The notes under the pieces were generated by a model, which had not been told where the DNA came from, did no database searches, and saw only the letters and a program-made list of their open reading frames with translations. 64,000 nucleotides of DNA. Origin: Polyangiales bacterium (lineage in GTDB: Bacteria; Myxococcota_A; Polyangia; Polyangiales; Ga0077539). Positions 1,493 through 17,157 of the stretch are shown here, piece by piece; position 1 is the stretch's first letter, and each line of letters starts with the position of its first letter. The translations under genes and the position numbers were made by a program. The stretch spans positions 96,001 through 160,000 of the forward strand of contig JBGARZ010000002.1 of assembly GCA_044229975.1 (NCBI GenBank), written 5' to 3'.

Positions 1493-4400
1493 CTACACGT
1501 TGATGAGGTCGAAGAGCTTGTCCGCCAGCGGGCGGTTCAACACCTTCAGGCTCTTGTAGACGTCCTGCGCGCTGTTCCAGTCGCCCGACCGGTACAGGCA
1601 CTCGCCCAGGTCGAACTGCAACTGCGCGTCGTTGGGCGTCTGCCGCGACGCCCGCCGCAGCGGGTCGACCGCCTCCTTGAAGCGCCCGGTCTTCTTGTAC
1701 GCGAGCCCGAGGCCGCGGTGCGCCGACGGCGCGTCGGGCGACGATTGCAGCACCCGCCGAAACGCCTTGATCGAGTCCTCGTCGCGACCGAGCTGACCCA
1801 TCAACAGCGCCGCCGCGAGGTGCGAGTCCACGTCGTCGGGCTTCAAGCGAATGGCGTTCTGGTACGCCTCTACGGCGTCTTGCAGCCGCCCGCTCTCGGC
1901 CAGCATGTACCCGAGGCCCGCCTGGAGCGTCGGGTCGCGCGGGTCGAGGCGCGCCGCGTTTTCCACGTGCGCGAGGGCGTCCTCCCCTTGGCCCTTCTGC
2001 CGCAGCGCGAGGCCCAGCGAGTAGTGCGCGTGCGCCATGTCGGGCTTCAACCTCACGGCCTCCCGCAGCGCCTCCACCGCCTCGTCGGGCTTCTCGACGT
2101 ACATGCTCAGCACGCCGAGCTTCTGGTGCGCCTCGGCCGACTGCGGGCGCAGCCGGACCGCCCGCTTGCACGCGTCCGCCGCGTCCAGCCATCGCCCCAT
2201 GCGCTCGTAGGTGAGCGCGAGGTTCCACAGCGCGTCGGCGTGGTCGGGGCGGTACCGCACGGCCTGCCGCAGCGACTCCGACGCGTCCTCCATGCGACCG
2301 AGCTCGGCGTAGCTGCGCGCGATGCCCAGCAGCGCGTCGATGAGGTCGGCCTTGATGCCGAGCGCGCACTCAAACGCCGTCACCGCGTCGGAGTGATGAC
2401 CCGCGTTTCCATAGAGGTTGCCGAGCGCCGTCCACGCGTCGGAATGATTGCGGTCGAGGTCGATGCACGCGCGAAACGCCTCGCCCGCCTCGGGGTAGCG
2501 ACCGACGTCGCGCAGCACCTCGCCGAGCGCGAAGCGCAGCGGAGCCTCGCGGGGCAGCAGCTCCACCGCGTGCTGGAGGGCGGCCTCGGCCTCGGGCAAG
2601 CGATCGAGCTGCTTGCTCGCGAGCGCCAGCAGTCGGTACGAGTCCGCGTGGTCGGGGTTGATGCGGATGGCCTCGCGCAAGGGAGGCAGCGCCGCCTCGT
2701 AGCGGCCGAGCGCCACCGAGACCGCACCGTAGCCGCGGTGGGCCGCGCCGTCGTGCGCGTCGAGGGCGAGCGCGCGCTGGAAGATCTCGGCGGCCTCGGC
2801 GTTCATCCCGGCGGCCTGGTAGGTCTCGCCGAGGACGCGGTACGCGAGCGCCTGGCGCGGGTCGAGGCGGATGGCCTGCCCCAGCGAGTCGACGGCCTCC
2901 TGTCCGCGACCGAGCTTCGCGTAGAGAACTCCCAGCTCAAGATGGGCGCGCGCGTCGTTGGGCCGCAGTCGTAGCGCCTGGCGGAAGCGCTCGATGGCCT
3001 CCTGGTCGCGTCCGAGGTCACGCGCCACGGCGCCGAGCGAGACATACGCGTCGGGGCTGTCGGGCCGCAGCCGCGCGAGCTGCCGGTACGCTGCCGCGGC
3101 CTCCTGGGGCATCTCCAGCGCGCGGTAGGTGTTGCCGAGCGCGTCGTAGGCCTCGGCGAAGTCGGTCTGGATGACCGTGGCCTGGCGGAAGTTTTCGACG
3201 GCCGCGCGGCGGTCGCCGAGGCGCTCGCGCATGAGGCCGAGGTGGTAGTGCGCTTCGGCGTATTCGGGCTTCTGCTCGACGGCCTGACGGAAGTACCCGA
3301 GGGCTTCTTCCCAGCGCTGGCCGCGCTCCAACGCGAGGCCGAGGAAGTAGAGCCCCTGCGGCTCTTCGGGCTTGCGGTCGACGGCCTTGCGGAGGCTCTC
3401 CAGCGCTTCGTCACCGCGGCCGAGGCGCTCCAGCGCGATGCCGTGGTTGCGCTGCGAGTCCATGTCGTTGGGGTCGAGCCAGACGGCCTGCTCGAACGCA
3501 TCGACCGCGTCCTGGTAGCGCTCGATCTCCAGGAACACCGACCCCAGCGCCGCGTGCAGCACGGGGTTGTTGGGCTGGAGCTTCACGCCTTGCTGGAAGG
3601 CCTTGATGGCCTCGTCGGGGCGGTCGATGCGGCGGTAGGCGACGCCGAGGTTGTAGTGCCCGTCGGGGTGATCGGGCTTCACCTTCACGGCGCGCAGGAG
3701 ACCTTCGATGGCCTCGTCTTTTCGATCGAGCGAGAGCAGCGCGGCGCCGAGTCGATGGAGCGTCTCGGGGTGGTCCTTGCGGAGGGTGAGCGCGCTCTTG
3801 AACTGGTCGACGCCGTCCTGGTAGCGCGTCGTGGTGACGTAGGTGACGCCGAGCTGAACGATCGCGTCGAAGTAGTCGCCGCGCAGCTTGATGGCCTCGC
3901 GGAAGGCCTCGACGGCTTCGACCTGTCGGCTGAGACCGGCGTAGACCTTGGCGAGCTCGAAGTGCGACTCGGGGTAGTCGGGCCGCAGCTTGATGGCCTT
4001 GCGAAAGGCCTCGATGGCGGCGTCGGGCTTGTCGATGGCAGCGCAGACCTCGCCGAGCGCGTGCAGCGAGTCCGGGTGGTTGGTGCGCAGCCGCGTCGAC
4101 TGGCGCAGCGACTCCTCGGCCTGGATGAGGTTGCCCAGCGCGCGCTCGTGCAGGCCCAGCGTGTAGTGGAACTCCGCCTCTTCCGGTTGCAGCCGGATGG
4201 CGTCGCGCACCGCCTTGGCCGCTTCGGGGATGCGCCCGAGGTCTTTGTAGACGATGCCCAGGTGGTTGTAGCCGGGGGCGCAGTTGGGATCGATGTGGAC
4301 GGCCTGTTCGAGGGCCTCGACGGCCTCCTGCATGGAGCCGACGGCGGCGCACGACACGCCGAGGCCGACGCGCAGGAGCGGCTGGTCGGGGGCGCGCTTG

Positions 4401-5269
4401 ATGGCCTCGCGGAAGGCGCTCACGGCGTCGGAGTGTTTGCCGAGCGCCTGCGCGGCGTAGGCGACGCCGGCGTGTCCCTCGACGCGCTCGGGGGCGACGC
4501 GGACGACCTCGTGAAACGACCCGAGGGCGAGCTCGTGGCGCCCGAGGCGGGCGGCGAGGTTGGCGGCGGCGAGGTGCGCTTCGAGGCGGTTGGGATCGGC
4601 CGCGACGCAGGTGCGCCACGTCGCGAGGGCGTCGTCGACCCGGTTGGTGTTTTCGAGGGAGACGCCGAGGCGGAAGAGGTCGTCGGGGGTGGCGGGCTCG
4701 ATCTTCGAGAGGTGGTCGAAGGTCTTGACGGCGTCGTTGTCGCGCTTGGCGCCGTGGTAGGCCCACGCGAGGTTGCGGATGATCTCGGCCTCGCCGGGGC
4801 GCAGCTCGTTGGCGCGTTCGAGGTAGGGGATGGCCTCGGCGAAGGCGCGGGCGCGGACGTAGACGAAGCCCACCTCGGAGACCGCGGCGGCGTAGTCGGG
4901 CTTGACCTTGAGGGCCTGGCGAAACGACGCGCTGGAGTCGTCCCACTGCGCGAGCTTCGCCTGCACCTGACCGAGGCGGTACCAGCTCTCGGCGTGCTCG
5001 GGCTTGAGGCGTGCGCCCTCCTTGAGCGCCGGGGCGGCGGCGGCGAAGTCCTCCTTGGCCATGTGGTCGAGGCCGAGGTTGAAGTGCCCGTCAGCGAGGT
5101 TGGGGTCGATGGCGATGACCCGCTTGTGGGCGACGATGGCCTCGTCGAGGCGCCCCGCCTGGCGGTAGAGGTTGCCCAGCCGGTTGCGCTGAAACGGGTC
5201 GTTGGGACGGATCATCAACGCCGTCTTGGCCTGCTCGATCTGCTCCGCCAACCGCTGCTGCTCGCTCAT
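1493..5269 (-). CDS. Giant tetratricopeptide-repeat protein (1258 aa, about 35 TPRs)
   Basis: Continuous 34-aa TPR periodicity (A..NLG..Y...G...EA...F..A....P) from MSEQQRL to the C-terminus; start re-picked at ATG 5269. Confidence 0.9.
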   Translation of the reverse strand: MSEQQRLAEQIEQAKTALMIRPNDPFQRNRLGNLYRQAGRLDEAIVAHKRVIAIDPNLADGHFNLGLDHMAKEDFAAAAPALKEGARLKPEHAESWYRLGQVQAKLAQWDDSSASFRQALKVKPDYAAAVSEVGFVYVRARAFAEAIPYLERANELRPGEAEIIRNLAWAYHGAKRDNDAVKTFDHLSKIEPATPDDLFRLGVSLENTNRVDDALATWRTCVAADPNRLEAHLAAANLAARLGRHELALGSFHEVVRVAPERVEGHAGVAYAAQALGKHSDAVSAFREAIKRAPDQPLLRVGLGVSCAAVGSMQEAVEALEQAVHIDPNCAPGYNHLGIVYKDLGRIPEAAKAVRDAIRLQPEEAEFHYTLGLHERALGNLIQAEESLRQSTRLRTNHPDSLHALGEVCAAIDKPDAAIEAFRKAIKLRPDYPESHFELAKVYAGLSRQVEAVEAFREAIKLRGDYFDAIVQLGVTYVTTTRYQDGVDQFKSALTLRKDHPETLHRLGAALLSLDRKDEAIEGLLRAVKVKPDHPDGHYNLGVAYRRIDRPDEAIKAFQQGVKLQPNNPVLHAALGSVFLEIERYQDAVDAFEQAVWLDPNDMDSQRNHGIALERLGRGDEALESLRKAVDRKPEEPQGLYFLGLALERGQRWEEALGYFRQAVEQKPEYAEAHYHLGLMRERLGDRRAAVENFRQATVIQTDFAEAYDALGNTYRALEMPQEAAAAYRQLARLRPDSPDAYVSLGAVARDLGRDQEAIERFRQALRLRPNDARAHLELGVLYAKLGRGQEAVDSLGQAIRLDPRQALAYRVLGETYQAAGMNAEAAEIFQRALALDAHDGAAHRGYGAVSVALGRYEAALPPLREAIRINPDHADSYRLLALASKQLDRLPEAEAALQHAVELLPREAPLRFALGEVLRDVGRYPEAGEAFRACIDLDRNHSDAWTALGNLYGNAGHHSDAVTAFECALGIKADLIDALLGIARSYAELGRMEDASESLRQAVRYRPDHADALWNLALTYERMGRWLDAADACKRAVRLRPQSAEAHQKLGVLSMYVEKPDEAVEALREAVRLKPDMAHAHYSLGLALRQKGQGEDALAHVENAARLDPRDPTLQAGLGYMLAESGRLQDAVEAYQNAIRLKPDDVDSHLAAALLMGQLGRDEDSIKAFRRVLQSSPDAPSAHRGLGLAYKKTGRFKEAVDPLRRASRQTPNDAQLQFDLGECLYRSGDWNSAQDVYKSLKVLNRPLADKLFDLINV

Positions 5270-5361: not shown

Positions 5362-6162
5362 TCAGCGCCGCGCAAAGGCCCGCTGCGCGGCGTCGTCGAC
5401 GAGCTCGCCCGCCGGGGTCGACGCGATCACTGCGGGGGCGTAGCCGCTCTCGACGGCGAGGATGTCGACGGCGGTCCCTGTCACGCGGAGACGGAGGCGC
5501 CACGCGCGCCAAGCGATGTGCCGGTCGCCGTCGGGGAGCGCCTCGATGCGGCGGTAGGGGTGCGGCGTGGCGTCGCGGCGCAGGACGTCTTCGAGGGGCG
5601 CGAGGTCGACGGCGTGATCGGTCCAGAGCCAGTCGCGCTGCTCGGCGGCGAGCGGTGACCATGTGACGGTGTTGGGGAAGGCGCTGCCGTCACGCTCGGC
5701 GCGGACGAGGTCGTCGATCCATCCGGCGCGCGCGTCAGGGTGGGCTTCGACGCTGGGGTGGTAGGGCTTGAGATCAAGCACGGGCGTGCCGTCGAGCAGG
5801 TCGACGTCGGCGACGCGGAGGGTGAGGCCGCGCACGTCGAGCAGGCGAACAAGCGAGAGACCGAGCGGATTGGGACGATGGGGCGAGCGCGTGGCGAAGA
5901 CGCCGCGGCGCACGCGCGGGCCGCGTGGAGGCAGCACCATCGGGCGCCAGTTGCGGGCGCGGTCGAACCACGTGATGAGCCAGAGGCGGTCCATGCCGGC
6001 GAGGTCGCGCAGGGCCTCGCGGATGCCGGGCGCGGGGTGGAGCTCGACGAGGGCCTCGCGCTCGGCGGGCGCGGCGCCGGGCTGACGCGGGGTGCGCGCG
6101 AGGTGATCGTGGGCGGAGCGCACGACGCCGATGGGGCGCAGGGTGATGGGGACATCGGTCAT
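5362..6162 (-). CDS. trmO: tRNA m6t6A37 methyltransferase TrmO (TsaA)
   Basis: LRPIGVVRS..TPRQP, RRGVFATRSPHRPNPLGLS, DLLDGTPVLDLKPY; start 6162 or 6198. Confidence 0.9.
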   Translation of the reverse strand: MTDVPITLRPIGVVRSAHDHLARTPRQPGAAPAEREALVELHPAPGIREALRDLAGMDRLWLITWFDRARNWRPMVLPPRGPRVRRGVFATRSPHRPNPLGLSLVRLLDVRGLTLRVADVDLLDGTPVLDLKPYHPSVEAHPDARAGWIDDLVRAERDGSAFPNTVTWSPLAAEQRDWLWTDHAVDLAPLEDVLRRDATPHPYRRIEALPDGDRHIAWRAWRLRLRVTGTAVDILAVESGYAPAVIASTPAGELVDDAAQRAFARR

Positions 6163-6268
6163 CGGGCGGGTGTTGGCCGTGGGCACGATCGCGGTCATGC
6201 GCGCTTCGGTCGTGGGCGCCGAGACTATGTCTTCTCCGTGATCCTTCGGGTAGGTTCGCTCGCACCCG

Positions 6269-6982
6269 ATGATGAACCCTCCCAACGGTCCCCTTCCTTC
6301 CTCGACTCCTTCCGCCAGCAGCGCCCTCCTCACCGCCGCCCTCGGCGGGCTGCTCTGCTTCACCGCCTCGTGCAGCTCCCAGGCGATCGCTCCCGCGTCG
6401 GACTCGGGTGCAGGCGCCGATACGGGCGCCAGTGTCGATGGCGGCACGGTGGTCGACACGGGCACCGGGCGCGACGCGGGTACTGCGACCGATACGCCAG
6501 TGACGTCGACGGATGTCGTTGTGGCGACCGACACGCCCGTCACCGCGACCGACACGCCCGTCACCGCGACGGACGTCGTCGCTGCCACCGACACGCCCGT
6601 CACCTCGACTGACACGCCGGTCGCCACCGATACGCCCGTCACTCCGACCGACGCCGGCTCCGCGATCGACGCGACGACCGCCGCTGACGCGACCACCGCG
6701 CCCGATGTGCAGCCTGATGTTCCGCTCATCGTGCGCGACGCGGGCTGTGACGTCGCGGCCGATCGGGTGGTCGCCTCCCGCGACGCGGGCATCGGCGGCA
6801 TGAGCCTCACGGTCTTCGTCGCGCGCTGCAACGCGGCGGGCGGCTTCGTGGAGATTCACCCCCACTGCGGCGGCGCCAATTCCTGCGCGGGCTTCTCCTA
6901 CGACCAGACGACGGACACCTTCTCCGAGCACAACTGCGCGACCCTCAACACCTGCACCGGCTACACCTGCGTTCTTCCCTGA
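6269..6982 (+). CDS. Putative lipoprotein with Thr/Asp/Pro/Val linker and Cys-rich C-terminal domain; candidate MNIO (DUF692) precursor/substrate
   Basis: Hydrophobic stretch ending in lipobox-like FTAS-C; TDTPV repeats; C-terminal CNAAGG..HPHCGGANSCAG..EHNCATLNTCTGYTC; converges on DUF2063/DUF692 genes. Confidence 0.7.
   Translation: MMNPPNGPLPSSTPSASSALLTAALGGLLCFTASCSSQAIAPASDSGAGADTGASVDGGTVVDTGTGRDAGTATDTPVTSTDVVVATDTPVTATDTPVTATDVVAATDTPVTSTDTPVATDTPVTPTDAGSAIDATTAADATTAPDVQPDVPLIVRDAGCDVAADRVVASRDAGIGGMSLTVFVARCNAAGGFVEIHPHCGGANSCAGFSYDQTTDTFSEHNCATLNTCTGYTCVLP
6487..6654 (+). repeat. Intragenic tandem repeats (about 21-bp unit, TDTPVT[A/S])
   Basis: Repeated accgacacgcccgtcacc; two exact adjacent copies of gcgaccgacacgcccgtcacc plus several degenerate copies. 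Confidence 0.85.
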
Positions 6983-6991
6983 CGAGCCCGA

Positions 6992-7846
6992 TCAGCTCGT
7001 AGCGAGCCCCGTCCACATCCCCCGCGCGACTCCTTGCGCGAGCCATCGCTGGGCGTTGCCCGGTAGCGCCGCCCGCTCCGCCTCCGAACCCCCCGCCTCC
7101 AGCCGCGCGAGCGCCTCGCGCACCGGGTGCTCCCGCAACAGCATCAGCAGCTCCGCTTCGCGCGCTTCGAGCGCGAGCTGACGGATGCCTGCCACCTCGC
7201 GGACGAGCACCCACCAGCGCAGCTGCGGCAGGCGCTCGGGCACCGCCACCCGCGTCTCTCCGCGCGCCGCCGCCGCGACGCCTCGCAGTGCCAACAAGGG
7301 CCAACGCTCCACGACGATGGCCGTCGCGGGTGAGCTTTCGAGGCGCGCGTCGAGCAGGCGTGCCGCATCCGCCGCGCTCGGAACAAACGGCACCGTCGCG
7401 GGCGCGCGGAAGATGATCCGCCAGGCAGCATCGAGCCGTGCCGCGTCGAGCAGCACGTCGCGGAGCGGGTGCTCGCCGATGGACTCCGCGAGGAAGTCCT
7501 CGAAGCCGTCGGGGGCGCGGTCGAGGTCCCAGTGACGCGGCGGGTGTGCGAGCAGGAAGCGCGCGGAGTGCTCGTTGAAGTGCCAGTGACCGAGCAGCCG
7601 CGACGTCAGCGGAAACGCCGTCTGCAACACCCCGAAGAGCCGAAACCAGTACTGCCGGTTGTAGACCGCGAGCCGGTCGGCGGCGATGGCGCGTGGCCCG
7701 TCCATCGCCTCGGCGAGAGCGCCCGGGTCGTACGCCGTGGGCGTCGCGCGCAGCGTGTTGGTGCTGCGATCGAGTGGCGTGCGGATCACCGACCCAAAGC
7801 GCTCCTGCATCTCCGCGAGCCACGGCGGCGGTTCGCGGCCGCTCAC
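6992..7846 (-). CDS. DUF2063 family MNIO partner protein (HvfC/BufC-like)
   Basis: RLAVYNRQYWFRLFGVLQTAFPLT..LG...F, ARFLLAHPP..WDL, DAARLDAAW; overlaps the DUF692 stop (GTGA). Confidence 0.85.
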   Translation of the reverse strand: MSGREPPPWLAEMQERFGSVIRTPLDRSTNTLRATPTAYDPGALAEAMDGPRAIAADRLAVYNRQYWFRLFGVLQTAFPLTSRLLGHWHFNEHSARFLLAHPPRHWDLDRAPDGFEDFLAESIGEHPLRDVLLDAARLDAAWRIIFRAPATVPFVPSAADAARLLDARLESSPATAIVVERWPLLALRGVAAAARGETRVAVPERLPQLRWWVLVREVAGIRQLALEAREAELLMLLREHPVREALARLEAGGSEAERAALPGNAQRWLAQGVARGMWTGLATS

Positions 7847-8682
7847 GCGCGGGCCTCACGGGCCTTGGCGAGCTCGGCGAGCACCTCGGGCATCGGCGGG
7901 ATGCGGTCGTCCCACTCCAGCAGCGTCGGGAAGGGGCCGCCGTGCTTCCAGGCGTGCGCGTACAGCGCCCACACCGCATCCGGAACCGGGTGGTCGTGCG
8001 TGTCGACGAGCGTCCCGTCGGGCTCGCGCGTGTGCCCCGCGAGGTGCACCTGGAGCACGCGCGAGTAGTCGACGGCGCGCAGGTACTCGTGCGGGTCGAA
8101 GCCGTGGTTCTGGCTCGACACGTAGACGTTGTTGACGTCGAGCATCGACCAGCAGCCCGCCTCGCGGACCACCGCTGCGTAGAAGTCCCACTCGCTCATG
8201 GTCGAGCGGCCGAACTCCACGTAGCTCGACAGGTTCTCGATGCCGAAGGGGCGACCGAGGCGCCGCTGAACGTGGTGCGCCCGCTCGGCGGCGAGCTCGA
8301 CGAGCTCGGGGGTGTACGGTGTCGGCAGGAGGTCGTGGTGCGACACGCCGTGGGCGCCCGTCCAGCACAGGTGGTCGGTGACGAAGGGCGCGTCGACGTG
8401 GTCGGCGAGGCGGCAGAGCGCGTCGAGGTACGCCTCGTCGAGCGGGGCGTGGCCGAGCAGGTTGAGGCCGACGCCGTGCAGCACCACGGGGTAGCGCGCG
8501 CGCACCGCGTCGAGGCGCGCGCGCGGGGGGAGCGCGGGGCCGAGGAAGTTCTCGCTGATGACCTCGAAGTACCCGACCGCGGGCCAGTGCTCGAAGAGGT
8601 AGGGGTAGTGGGCGAGCCGCAGTCCGAGCCCGAGGGCGTCGCGCGGGAGCGTGCTCGATGGTCCGGTCACGGGGCCGACCAT
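7843..8682 (-). CDS. DUF692 multinuclear non-heme iron oxidative enzyme (MNIO; MbnB/TglH/ChrH/BufB family)
   Basis: GLGLR, EVISENF, HGVGLNL, DHLCW, HDLLP, ENLSSY, LDVNNVYVS, HLAGH, DTH, LLEWD; ATG 8682 preceded by GGAGG. Confidence 0.95.
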   Translation of the reverse strand: MVGPVTGPSSTLPRDALGLGLRLAHYPYLFEHWPAVGYFEVISENFLGPALPPRARLDAVRARYPVVLHGVGLNLLGHAPLDEAYLDALCRLADHVDAPFVTDHLCWTGAHGVSHHDLLPTPYTPELVELAAERAHHVQRRLGRPFGIENLSSYVEFGRSTMSEWDFYAAVVREAGCWSMLDVNNVYVSSQNHGFDPHEYLRAVDYSRVLQVHLAGHTREPDGTLVDTHDHPVPDAVWALYAHAWKHGGPFPTLLEWDDRIPPMPEVLAELAKAREARA

Positions 8683-12754: not shown

Positions 12755-14806
12755 GTGGACGCCCCCGACCTCCCGCCCGATGCCCCCGCACCGCGCGAGG
12801 TGCTGTGGCAGCAGGCGCTCATCCGCGCGTCGCTCCAGGGCCTCGAAGACGTCGCCACCGCCGACGCCGCCGAGGTGCTCTTCGCCCGCTCGCGCCGCCC
12901 CTCCACCGCGAGCACCTTCTTCGATCAGCTCGGCGAGGCCGCCCTCGCCCGGGGCTTCGCGGTCGCTCGCGTGAGCGTCCTCGAAGAGCGCGCCTTCGAC
13001 ACCCTCGACGGCCTCGTGCGCAACCTCCTGCTCTCCCTGCGCGCGCCCGCGATGCCCTCGCGCGCCCGCGGCTGGTCCGCCCTGCTCGATCGCTTCGCCG
13101 CCGCGCACCCCTCCGCCGCCGCGGCCTCCGCCGCCTTCGAGCGCGTCGCCCTCCGCTACGGCGCCGCGGGTGACCTCTCGGTGCTCAGCCGCGAGTACCT
13201 CGACGCCTCCCCTCGCCCGGCCCGCGCCCTCGCCCGCCTCGACGCGTGGCTCTCGGGCACCGAGCTCGCTCGCGTCGAGGGCCGCGTCGCCGCGCTCGCG
13301 TCGCTCACCTCCGTCACCGCCCGCCGCGCCCTCGGGGAGTTCACGCGCCTGCTCCGCGCGCTCGGCCACCACGGGCTGGTGATGATCTTCGAGGGCGCCG
13401 AGGTGCTCACGCGCCTCTCGCCCGCGCGCCGCGACGGCAGCTTCACCGTGCTGCGCGAGCTCATCGACAACGCCGACGGCGGTCGCGGTCTCGTCGCCGC
13501 CCAGCTCTGGGTCTCCGGCACCGCCGCCCTCTTCGACGGCCCGCGCGCCATCACCGCCTTTCGCCCGCTCGCCACGCGCGTCCTCGTCACCTCCACCTTC
13601 GACGGAACCTTCCCCCCGCCCCACCGCGCCCTCGTCGACCTCACGCCCATCGGCGACTGGGACCCGGGCAACCTCCTCCCCACGGTGCGCCCTCCCGCCC
13701 CGGAGGTGGCCTCCGCGCTCCGCGCCGTGATGCGCGCCTCGCACGGCCTGCCCCCGGCCGACCCGGAGGTCTCCATGAGCGTCGGCCACGAGCGCATCGA
13801 TGCCACCATCACCGAGCTCTTCCACCACGCGGCGCTGGAGAGCTCGGTGTTCGCGCTGGTCACGGGCGTCTACGGCGCGGGCAAGTCGCACCTGCTCATG
13901 CACCTCACGGCGCGCGCCCTCGCGGAGAAGCGCCCGGTGTTTCGCCTCGCGATGGAGCACCTCGACGCTGACCTCGGCAACCCGCAGCGCCACCTGCGAC
14001 GCATGCTCGACCAGGCCGTGCTGCCGCTCCCGTCGGCGCCCAGCGCGCTCGATCGACTCGTCGCGTGGACGCGCTCTGCGGTGGGCGTCCATGACCTGCT
14101 CACGGCCCTCGAAGAGATCGCCGCCACCGCTGGGGACGCCGCCGTCCCCGCGCGCAAGGCGCTCTCCCGCGCGTCGCGCCAGGCGGGCGCTGGCGTCGCG
14201 CTGGAGAGCTTCCTCGGCGCCTCCGACCTCGCCGCGCGCGTGGGCACGTCGGCGTATCGCCGCGACGCCTACCAGCGCCTCCAGCTCTGGCTCGAACTCC
14301 TCGCCCGCATGGACGGCTGCCGCAACCCGATGATCCTCATCGACGAGGCCGAGAACCTCTACCGCGGCCTCGACCGCGGGCAACGGCGCGCGGCGCTGCG
14401 GTCGCTGTCGTTCTATTGCGGCGGCACGCTCCCCGGGAGCTGCGTGGTGCTCGCCATCACGCCCGACGCCCTCACCTCGCTGCGCCAGGAGGCCGGAGAA
14501 CTCCTCGACGACGTGGCCGAGCAGCGCACCGTGCTCCCCTCCGAGGACGCCGCGATGCTCCGTCGGCGCATCACCTTCACGCGCCCGGTGGAGGTGCCCG
14601 AGCTCGACGCGGGGCAGCGGGTGGTGCTGGCGTTTCGGGTGCGCGCGACGCACGCGAGGGTGCGCGGCGACGTGGACGATCCGCGCTGGGCGTCGTGGGT
14701 GACGGGCGCGCTCGCCGACGCCGCGACGCCGCGCGAGCTGGTGCGCCGGGTCATCGATCGGCTGGAGGGGTTGTGGTGGCGCGCGGGCGCCGTCTCGACG
14801 CGCTGA
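12755..14806 (+). CDS. Tandem DUF2791 (BREX BrxC/BrxD-like) P-loop ATPase; first domain degenerate
   Basis: N half: ALARGFAVARV, GHHGLVMIFEGAE, LRELIDN; C half: GVYGAGKSH (Walker A) and ILIDEAENL (Walker B). Confidence 0.75.
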   Translation: MDAPDLPPDAPAPREVLWQQALIRASLQGLEDVATADAAEVLFARSRRPSTASTFFDQLGEAALARGFAVARVSVLEERAFDTLDGLVRNLLLSLRAPAMPSRARGWSALLDRFAAAHPSAAAASAAFERVALRYGAAGDLSVLSREYLDASPRPARALARLDAWLSGTELARVEGRVAALASLTSVTARRALGEFTRLLRALGHHGLVMIFEGAEVLTRLSPARRDGSFTVLRELIDNADGGRGLVAAQLWVSGTAALFDGPRAITAFRPLATRVLVTSTFDGTFPPPHRALVDLTPIGDWDPGNLLPTVRPPAPEVASALRAVMRASHGLPPADPEVSMSVGHERIDATITELFHHAALESSVFALVTGVYGAGKSHLLMHLTARALAEKRPVFRLAMEHLDADLGNPQRHLRRMLDQAVLPLPSAPSALDRLVAWTRSAVGVHDLLTALEEIAATAGDAAVPARKALSRASRQAGAGVALESFLGASDLAARVGTSAYRRDAYQRLQLWLELLARMDGCRNPMILIDEAENLYRGLDRGQRRAALRSLSFYCGGTLPGSCVVLAITPDALTSLRQEAGELLDDVAEQRTVLPSEDAAMLRRRITFTRPVEVPELDAGQRVVLAFRVRATHARVRGDVDDPRWASWVTGALADAATPRELVRRVIDRLEGLWWRAGAVSTR

Positions 14807-15648: not shown

Positions 15649-17157
15649 CTATTCGTAGACCCCGTCGAGGCGCCAGCGCGCGGTGATGGGGTCGTACGCG
15701 ACGAGGTAGAGCCCGCCGTCTTCGAGCTCGACGTCGTAGCCGTCGTGGGCGTAGCGCTCGGCCCACCAGTGGCCTTCGACGCGCCACGGCCCGCCGCAGC
15801 GCACCACGCGCCCGCGCACCTCGCCGGCCCTCACGCCCACCAGCTTCCCCCCGCTCAGATGAACCTCTGCCTCGCGTGGCGGGCGAAACACATGCAGCGC
15901 CATGGCGCGCCCGGTGGGAGCGGCGGGTGTTCGCGGGGTGCGCGGCGGATCGAAGGCGGCCATGGCGGCGGCGTAGGGCACGTGCGAGTCGGGCGCGACG
16001 GGTGCGCCCACGCGATCGGCGCCGACGAGGGCGGCGAGGCGGGTGAGCGTGAGGGCGAGGCGTTCGGGCGGCGGGCCGGGCGGGTCGAAGAGTCCGAGCT
16101 GCGTGGCGCGCAACGCGAGCGGGTGGGCCGCGATGCGCAGGGCCCGCACGGCATCGGGCGGCGCCTGCTTCTCCAGCGCGGCGCGCACGAGCGCGAAGAG
16201 CGAGGGGACGTCTCGCGTGGCCGTCGCGAGCGGGATCAAGCGCTCATCGGAGACGCGCGTGGTGAGGTCGAGGGCGAGCACCAGGGAGCCCACGCCGAGG
16301 CCGCGACAGGTGAGCCGGGCGACCAGCGCTTCGAGCACGCGGCGGGTCACGAAGAGCAGCGGCTCGGTGGTGAGCACCTCCCACTCGAACTCCACGCCCT
16401 CCTCGAAGCGCGCGGGCAGGGCCTGGGCGACGAAGGGTCGGTCGTCTTCGCCGCGGGCGAGCCGTACTGCGCGCGCGGCCTCCTCGCCGAGCCGCAGCCC
16501 CGCGTCGCCCACCGGGAGTCGGGCGAGCTCGGCGACCCGCGTGACGCCGTAGCGCCGCAGCGACGCGCGGAGTTCGTCGGTGAGTGACAGCGCCTCCAGG
16601 CCGAGTCGTCCGAGGTAGCGCGCCTCCTCGCCCGCGGGGATCACCGTCACCCCGTCCCGCTTCGACGCCACCGCGGCCACGCCGAGGTTGCTCGCGACGC
16701 CGACGGAGACCTCCAGGCCCACGCGCCGTGGCGCCTCGGTGAGCGCGGCCCCGAGGCCCGCTTCGGTCTCGTACATCCCCGCGAGCTCGCCCGCGTCGAT
16801 CCACACGCCGCGCGGCGCGGGGCAGAGCCGCGCTCCCACCGTGGCGACCGCGTCGAGCAGCGCGGAGCGGGCGCGCTGGAGCACCTCCTCGGACACGCCG
16901 CGCAGCCGAACGTCGGGAGCGACGGCCCGCGCGTGGTGCCCCGTCTGCCCGACCGCGACACCCAGCGAACGCGCCGGCGCCGTGCAGGCCACCACCCGGG
17001 CGGCGCCGTAGCCGGGCGGCAGCGCGCCTCCGCGGGCGGCGTCGGGGGCGACGTCGAGCACCGCGAGGGGGACGAGCGCGAGGTCGGGCTCGACGCGCAG
17101 CAGCGACGAGAGCGCGAGGTCACGCACGCGCACGAAGGCCACGCGGGTGGGCTTCAT
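15649..17157 (-). CDS. imuB: ImuB, inactive Y-family polymerase of the mutasome
   Basis: Y-family fold remnants (ARSLGVAVGQT, SVGVASN, YGVTRVAELARL), clamp motif QLGLF, C-terminal GPWRVEGHWW..DGYDVEL; catalytic carboxylates absent. Confidence 0.88.
   Translation of the reverse strand: MKPTRVAFVRVRDLALSSLLRVEPDLALVPLAVLDVAPDAARGGALPPGYGAARVVACTAPARSLGVAVGQTGHHARAVAPDVRLRGVSEEVLQRARSALLDAVATVGARLCPAPRGVWIDAGELAGMYETEAGLGAALTEAPRRVGLEVSVGVASNLGVAAVASKRDGVTVIPAGEEARYLGRLGLEALSLTDELRASLRRYGVTRVAELARLPVGDAGLRLGEEAARAVRLARGEDDRPFVAQALPARFEEGVEFEWEVLTTEPLLFVTRRVLEALVARLTCRGLGVGSLVLALDLTTRVSDERLIPLATATRDVPSLFALVRAALEKQAPPDAVRALRIAAHPLALRATQLGLFDPPGPPPERLALTLTRLAALVGADRVGAPVAPDSHVPYAAAMAAFDPPRTPRTPAAPTGRAMALHVFRPPREAEVHLSGGKLVGVRAGEVRGRVVRCGGPWRVEGHWWAERYAHDGYDVELEDGGLYLVAYDPITARWRLDGVYE

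Follow-up and report, generated by a model that had tools for sequence, protein, structure and literature searches.

A distant, probably permuted Buf2-like cysteine domain on a predicted lipoprotein is the probable substrate of a facing MNIO/DUF2063 enzyme pair in a Polyangiales genome

We analyzed a three-gene locus within a 64,000-nt stretch of DNA (the window) from a Polyangiales bacterium (GenBank GCA_044229975.1, contig JBGARZ010000002.1), in which coupled genes for an MNIO (DUF692) enzyme and its DUF2063 partner converge on the gene for a 237-amino-acid (aa) protein with a lipoprotein-like signal, a long stalk and a C-terminal cysteine-rich domain, here called the head. We propose, with a probability of about 60%, that the enzyme pair modifies the head and that the protein is then exported, lipidated and binds copper in the cell envelope. 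The enzyme pair and the facing gene travel together as a three-gene unit, and sequence comparisons make it very likely that the 237-aa protein is the substrate of the MNIO. An initial annotation of the window had already picked out this protein as the substrate, a reading now supported by linkage in both directions, by the single clade formed by the enzymes and by homology of the head to the Buf2 bufferins.

RESULTS

The head genes and the enzyme genes occur together. Neighborhoods of about 5 kb on each side were collected for 73 hit regions in the order (window excluded) and for 6 of the 7 hit genomes outside it, leaving out two weak phylum matches (G401 and G452:C89). In these 79 loci, an MNIO or DUF2063 gene was found near 76 of 89 family genes. 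The initial annotation had named synteny of the homologues as a check and would have been contradicted by a Cys-rich domain never found with DUF692; the opposite is observed. Gene order varied considerably: 48 family genes were arranged tail to tail with the partner gene; of those sharing the strand of the enzyme genes, 20 lay upstream and 5 downstream; 3 were divergent and 13 unlinked. Linkage thus persists over four gene orders, as well as in a distant low-GC host. On a metagenome contig of 49% GC, the MNIO gene starts 1 bp after the gene for a lipoprotein with two heads, and this MNIO scores 298 bits against the clade described here versus 216 bits against Buf2 enzymes.

The reverse linkage is equally tight. 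An MNIO matching that of the window at E ≤ 1e-95 is encoded in 55 of 401 genomes of the order, and 54 of these are among the 67 that carry the head family; in the single exception the contig ends inside the partner gene. Counted by place, 53 of 58 such MNIO genes stand beside a head gene, and the remaining five are ≤1 kb from a contig end. Of 34 tail-to-tail loci with enough space for another upstream Cys-rich open reading frame (ORF), only one contained such an ORF according to a crude filter. The window has no Cys-rich ORF directly upstream of its MNIO gene, as the initial annotation had said in finding no other candidate precursor nearby, and nothing in its genome passes the BufA2 or DUF2282 cut-off; the four-Cys Buf1 family PF10048 (DUF2282) matched neither the 237-aa protein nor anything else in the genome. 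Among 38 tail-to-tail relatives, the median spacing between stop codons was −4 nt, with 13 pairs overlapping by 22 nt. Such tightly packed facing stops suggest few inversion events followed by inheritance as a cassette. No extra gene was common to the tail-to-tail loci.

The head defines a family with six conserved cysteines. Both related motifs reported initially, HPHCGGANSCAG and EHNCATLNTCTG, are present in the C-terminal domain together with CNAAGG, and to these we add C234, a sixth invariant cysteine within GYTC, as well as C160, a seventh that varies. A word-indexed search with the 80-residue head as the query returned 17 proteins, and the family search yielded 150 representatives at E ≤ 0.001, three of which (P0030, P0094 and P0166) were unrelated and discarded. 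Genomes G387 and G396 were counted only within the 401-genome denominators and in one tally. The genome of the window (assembly 93% complete) has a single head gene; a homologue 63% identical to the 237-aa protein is likewise labeled Polyangiales bacterium, and a cytochrome-fused member is labeled Pseudomonadota. A first metagenome scan for the head found nothing, and a contig scan with a tandem-head member returned three loci, all of other bufferin types, with the head family absent.

The family consensus reads helix-C-x3-GG-x-V-x-H-x-x-C-GG-x-N-S-C-x-G-x-S-Y ... T-E-H-x-C-x-G-x-N-T-C-x-G-x-S-C. All six cysteines are kept in 136 of 142 aligned sequences (alignment A2, which includes one out-of-frame row, L097); the six others lack C206 only, and the remaining five cysteines never vary. 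The isolated loss of C206 is more readily explained if this residue is modified than if it is one partner in a structural disulfide. No Pfam family matched the 237-aa protein. An AlphaFold model of the head consists of a helix and five short strands (pLDDT, 74.9), for which Foldseek gave no match at E ≤ 0.001, VIA-align a best Z of 3.3 and the ESM Atlas no usable match, while a PDB sequence search matched a cytochrome part only (see below) and not the head. These null searches are not taken to show a new fold. Taken together, the data support well a real family of dedicated MNIO substrates.

Several variants of the head were seen among the relatives. Tandem heads, two to four per lipoprotein, occur in P0020, P0075, P0087, P0153, P0157, P0158 and L173:2-538, which come from lower-GC hosts; several of these proteins lack the conserved His residues, and one is encoded directly upstream of a clade MNIO. 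A single MNIO pair is faced by tandem precursor genes, two or three in number and differing in stalk length, at L066, L080, L087, L071 and L060. Seven five-Cys heads without the C206 equivalent (L075, L077, L079, L081, L088 and L089) are never tail to tail or precursor first, and five of them are unlinked; in L077, an MNIO fragment lies between two copies. By eye, L065, L066, L067, L069, L080 and L083 have a C160-like cysteine ahead of the head together with an additional one at the C terminus, and the two likely form an added disulfide; the window protein has C160 and, again by eye, no such C-terminal partner. In L082 (G014), a frameshifted precursor gene lies ∼4 kb from a frameshifted MNIO gene, with a short head remnant beside the partner gene, reflecting either a decaying locus or an assembly error.

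The head is likely a circularly permuted Buf2 domain. We compared the head with a Buf2 profile for which 28 domains were taken from this bacterial order. The head core aligned with CysI to CysV of Buf2 (probability, 93.8; E = 1.8e-7), with an aromatic residue at the position of CysIII. When Buf2 was rotated at all 62 cut points, the best score (53.8, versus 45.1 for the native order) was obtained with the terminal CxxxGG helix moved to the front, and the alignment grew from 37 columns to 50 to 52. None of 300 shuffled tails reached the permuted score, and the Buf2 tail alone scored 17.3 against the head, compared with a maximum of 13.9 over 200 shuffles. A mapping with the two internal Buf2 repeats swapped was rejected (35 versus 53.8). 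From sequence, the head is thus likely a distant Buf2 domain in which the CxxxGG helix has moved to the front, CysIII has been lost and one cysteine is new. The permuted element spans only 11 columns (with a probability of 62.7 on its own) and the pattern used to select Buf2 domains demanded CxxxGG, so we regard the permutation as likely rather than proven. Because natural tandem Buf2s exist and tandem heads begin with the helix, the usual duplication route to a permutation would be available. In the inferred map, C187 would correspond to CysVI, C200 to CysI, C206 to CysII, C223 to CysIV and C229 to CysV, with C234 being new.

The bufferin likeness noted initially therefore holds as homology to CysI to CysV, in a remote and rearranged form; of the profile and structure searches proposed at that time, the former matched our Buf2 profile while missing the BufA2 cut-off. 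Across the family, 72 of 142 members match the BufA2 model weakly (best E, 5.2e-6). The head has six conserved cysteines, as Buf2s do, only five of which map to Buf2 cysteines; its helix is N-terminal, whereas in Buf2 the CxxxGG helix follows CysI to CysV. The bufABC order, with the precursor upstream on the same strand, is absent from the window and present for 20 of 89 relatives, while the BufB-type MNIO and PME type 1 partner are found in the window too. We conclude that the head family probably works like Buf2 but by these tests is no member of BufA2. A few MNIO-linked precursors (L138-L140, L170 and L171) carry HxCKGxNxCKG(Q/K)GGC repeats without the CxxxGG helix and score below or near the BufA2 cut-off.

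The enzymes form a clade of their own. The DUF692 metal-ligand motifs described initially are borne out by ten positions (H69, D103, H104, E149, D182, N185, H213, D227, H229 and E256) that are invariant in 52 aligned MNIOs, and we take the His, Asp and Glu columns to be iron ligands. The window MNIO falls under the cut-offs for HvfB (227 bits, cut-off 360), ChrH (40, cut-off 600) and MbnB (43, cut-off 325) and also fails ApyH; its DUF2063 partner matches HvfC weakly. In a tree of 84 MNIOs, from which sequences with <230 aligned residues or with stops were excluded, the 61 of the window type form a single clade (support, 100/100), separate both from the three other MNIOs of the genome and from 20 enzymes encoded next to BufA2-like genes. 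Each of these three has its own upstream lipoprotein-like precursor gene. These precursors (L002:1050-1478, L003:1057-1482 and L004:1051-1482; G000 contigs C19, C29 and C31) are paralogues of 141 to 143 aa with repeated (A/G)SCG and NCG motifs, encoded directly upstream of the MNIOs, which form a long-branch clade. They match no Pfam or NCBIfam model and constitute a second unnamed precursor family in this genome; by eye, two of them lie near a multicopper-oxidase-like gene.

Signal and stalk. Of 151 family proteins that start with Met, 122 have a hydrophobic region followed by [AGS]C, and the lipobox Cys is nearly invariant in family alignment A3; a strict lipobox occurs in 35. Most canonical Buf2s from the same order also have a Cys preceded by A, G or S after the hydrophobic core. 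The initial description of the signal as lipobox-like accordingly stands for the core and the [AGS]C of the family and less well for the window protein itself, discussed below. By analogy, lipidation of the 237-aa protein is quite probable. The long TDTPV stalk is as described, the repeat occurring six times within 122 residues rich in Thr, Ala, Asp and Val. Between the lipobox Cys and the first head Cys lie 152 residues in the window protein and 26 to 207 across the family (76 of 83 genes parsed, two of them mis-picked), and no conserved cleavage motif was visible ahead of the head in the family alignments.

Many relatives are fused to cytochrome c. A CxxCH-type motif follows just past the sixth Cys in 20 of 20 precursor-first genes, 3 of 5 downstream genes and 4 of 13 unlinked genes; the 48 tail-to-tail and 3 divergent genes all lack it. 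Over all stored family proteins, 65 of 155 have the heme motif, 60 of them with a later Met motif, and PF00034 scored over cut-off in 8 of 9 fused proteins tested. The model of one fused protein (pLDDT, 85.9; pTM, 0.76; ∼50 loose N-terminal residues) suggests that the head and cytochrome domains may pack together. Its best fold matches were cytochrome c6-like, none at E ≤ 0.001, and the ESM Atlas placed a fused member among generic cytochrome c clusters only (0.87). In the window genome, tblastn found no homologue of the fused cytochrome domain (assembly completeness as above).

The first split in the MNIO clade separates six fused precursor-first loci (94/77) from an unresolved mix, and fusion is also what the loci outside the order show. 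Judged by parsimony only, a fused, co-oriented ancestral state is therefore likelier, and the locus of the window probably derives, with loss of the heme domain, from a precursor-first operon encoding a protein that ended in cytochrome c. The neighbors of 27 heme loci include genes for MbnP (6 loci), MbnH (4) and YtkA-like proteins (6). MbnP is a copper-binding protein matured by MbnH (PMC11951088). Several of the fused members (L164-L169 and L090-L110) contain MopE-like repeats (PF11617) or EF-hand-like stalk segments, and their neighbors comprise MbnP/MbnH, YtkA, DUF3570 and DUF2271. We consider the heme-fused relatives, which the initial annotation could not have seen, the more surprising feature.

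Layout of the locus. Coordinates and Pfam scores (Table 1) agree with the initial account of coupled genes converging on the 237-aa gene, with stops 9 bp apart. The MNIO stop and the GTG start of the partner gene share 4 bases. No terminator-like site was found in the gap between the facing genes, inspection by eye revealed no shared upstream motif, and a sigma-70 site was not detected.

Table 1. Features of the locus (window coordinates)
Feature	Position	Strand	Basis
Precursor gene (237 aa) encoding signal, stalk and head with six Cys	6269..6982	+	ORF; homologues align from the same start; third-position GC content (GC3) 0.86
Predicted lipoprotein signal: hydrophobic core (SxxLLxAALxGLL) ending in lipobox-like TASC, Cys35	6317..6373	+	Family conservation
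Low-complexity Thr/Ala/Asp/Val stalk, six TDTPV repeats	6374..6739	+	
Head domain: C187, C200, C206, C223, C229, C234 and variable C160; conserved H197, H221, N204, N227, S210-Y211	6740..6979	+	
9-bp gap separating facing stop codons	6983..6991		
DUF2063 partner (PME type 1, BufC-like), 284 aa	6992..7846	-	PF09836, 61.6 bits (cut-off 27.2), E 8.6e-17
MNIO (DUF692), BufB-like, 279 aa	7843..8682	-	PF05114, 319.5 bits; NF050167

The flanking genes (TrmO, SGNH hydrolase and glycosyltransferase) are unrelated and do not recur beside relatives. The TrmO tRNA methyltransferase gene (5362-6198, minus strand) is divergent from the precursor gene, with ∼70 bp between them. Farther away, the window encodes a 1,258-aa TPR protein (1493-5269, minus strand), a BrxC/BrxD-like ATPase (12755-14806, plus strand) and an ImuB-like (IMS) protein (15649-17157, minus strand).

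DISCUSSION

According to the mechanism that we favor, the enzyme pair would act in the cytoplasm on the head prior to export, with the MNIO and DUF2063 proteins oxidizing several head cysteines to thiooxazoles. The modified protein would then be exported and lipidated at Cys35, and the head, carried on the tip of the stalk, would serve as a tethered buffer that binds copper in the envelope. Formation of 5-thiooxazoles is widespread among MNIOs that depend on PME1 (PMC13097082), and in Buf2 the central cysteines carry −4.03 Da while CysI and CysVI likely form a disulfide (10.1101/2024.03.18.585515). By the permutation map, C187-C200 corresponds to that disulfide, and C206, C223, C229 and perhaps C234 would each be shifted by −4 Da, for a total of about −18 Da. 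The conserved His197, His221 and Tyr211 may assist metal binding. By analogy with these systems, thiooxazole chemistry on the head is quite likely, and copper is likely its main ligand.

Several observations weigh against this reading. The genomes are kin, so that the linkage counts are not independent, and of the 13 unlinked family genes about five lie near contig ends, leaving about eight that contig ends do not explain. The BufA2 model NF050166 (cut-off 60) gives only 11.6 bits for the whole protein and 13.3 bits for the head. The window MNIO passes the BufB model NF050167 by 0.5 bit (310.5 bits, cut-off 310), and two deeper MNIOs of the clade, at 249 and 282 bits, are below it. The lipobox of the window protein, TASC, is non-strict, and its n-region has no Lys or Arg in the first 20 residues. 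Finally, MbnP, MbnH or YtkA-like genes neighbor none of the 52 heme-free loci, which are of the window's type.

It is highly improbable, in our estimate, that the true substrate of the MNIO lies elsewhere and that the head merely hitchhikes beside the enzyme as a conventional lipoprotein domain with disulfide bonds. The unlinked genes, the opposite strand of the precursor gene, which precludes cotranscription, and the sub-cut-off BufA2 scores would all fit such a domain. They are countered by linkage that holds in four gene arrangements and extends to a distant host of low GC, by the reverse linkage in 54 of 55 genomes, by the absence of another upstream precursor from 33 of 34 roomy tail-to-tail loci and by a genome in which no gene passes the BufA2 or DUF2282 cut-off while its head is homologous to Buf2. 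The protein might also be modified without having a lipid tether: signal peptidase I might process it, an uncleaved helix might retain it, or the head might be clipped from the stalk to act as a soluble bufferin. The non-strict TASC and uncharged n-region speak for this, as does the wide range of stalk lengths, which implies little constraint; we nevertheless consider it improbable, given that the A/G/S-Cys pair after the hydrophobic core is so widely kept in the family, that most canonical Buf2s of the order are arranged alike and that no conserved cleavage motif is seen before the head.

Another alternative accepts the modification and questions the buffer: the head could be a metal site for redox chemistry or for copper delivery to or from cytochrome c, or could bind another soft metal. 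The heme motif after the sixth Cys in every precursor-first copy and in 65 of 155 family proteins, the PF00034 matches, the fused model and the family-specific His residues are in line with this idea, and MbnP/MbnH and YtkA neighbors suggest copper handling over simple sequestration. In the window, however, the protein has no heme domain, and no homologue of the fused cytochrome domain was found in its genome, an assembly 93% complete; tail-to-tail loci share no extra genes, and in some heme-free loci the precursor gene is present in two or three tandem copies, a pattern that would suit a buffer acting by dose. We judge this alternative unlikely and retain the tethered copper buffer. More tentatively, and with the odds against it, the family could represent a third, permuted bufferin class whose ancestor was a lipoprotein holding an MNIO-made thiooxazole-copper site against a c-type heme, the window protein being a heme-less offshoot that was fixed by inversion of the gene. 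As part of that same tentative claim, the heme-packed form would be a redox protein with an MNIO-derived cofactor, such as a copper reductase, an oxidase or an envelope relay.

The head family supplies a probable substrate for a whole orphan clade of MNIOs. The natural permutation and the spacer of 26 to 207 residues also bear on whether BufBC-type enzymes recognize the core or the signal of their substrates, a point on which published accounts differ: the signal is dispensable for Buf1, while later preliminary work, in the Discussion of PMC12452194, counts it within the recognition sequence. Given how often the heme fusion occurs, thiooxazoles may work as cofactors of electron transfer proteins, beyond acting as copper sponges. 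If true, MNIO chemistry would extend from free peptides to membrane-bound and possibly electron-transferring proteins.

Lipid anchoring of MNIO substrates has already been published (PMC12452194 and PMC13056109) and is thus not the novel part. About 16% of Buf2s, which range from 51 to 367 aa, are predicted lipoproteins (PMC12452194), and lipidated MNIO products have been shown, with precursors of 50 to 160 aa mined (PMC13056109; preprint, PMC12636315). Precursors were gathered in PMC12452194 if they preceded an MNIO gene and were <200 aa, so that the filters of both surveys would miss a precursor of 237 aa encoded opposite to its enzyme genes. In the open-access literature, we found no account of this motif order or permutation, of the enzyme clade, of a tail-to-tail cassette or of a Buf2-type cytochrome fusion; the supplementary tables of PMC12452194 and PMC13056109 may list short members or long fused ones under the Buf2 profile.

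Among known systems, the oxazolins (HvfA/HvfBC), chryseobasins (ChrA/ChrHI) and methanobactins (MbnABC) resemble the window in the action, proposed for the latter, of an MNIO and a partner on cysteines. They differ from it in that the window protein has neither EGKCG nor CPACGMG and the enzyme falls under the HvfB, ChrH and MbnB cut-offs. The DAG-RiPPs (DybA and lipidated bufferins and oxazolins; PMC13056109) combine an MNIO substrate with a lipoprotein signal, a combination that is predicted here; DybA, however, is a ChrH-type CPACGMG substrate, unlike the predicted folded head on the stalk of a 237-aa protein. Fusions of a bufferin domain to a c-type cytochrome, as in our fused relatives, appear as Buf1/Cytochrom_C in the legend to Fig. 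3 of PMC12452194. Those are a few DUF2282 cases, whereas 65 of 155 members of the head family are fused and their domain is Buf2 derived; the abstract, Discussion and most of the Results of that paper contain no Buf2-cytochrome fusion. The closest relative is Buf2 itself (BUF_6/12Cys; BufA2, NF050166; buf2ABC of Caulobacter vibrioides), which like the window has a BufB-type MNIO, a DUF2063 protein and six cysteines. The two CxGxNxCxG motifs are homologous to CysI-II and CysIV-V, and both proteins have a CxxxGG helix and an export signal. Buf2 differs in carrying the helix at its end, in retaining CysIII, in lacking the new last Cys of the head and in having a separate MNIO clade, and the window is set apart from Buf2 by its tail-to-tail gene order, by its long stalk and by the cytochrome c fusion of its relatives.

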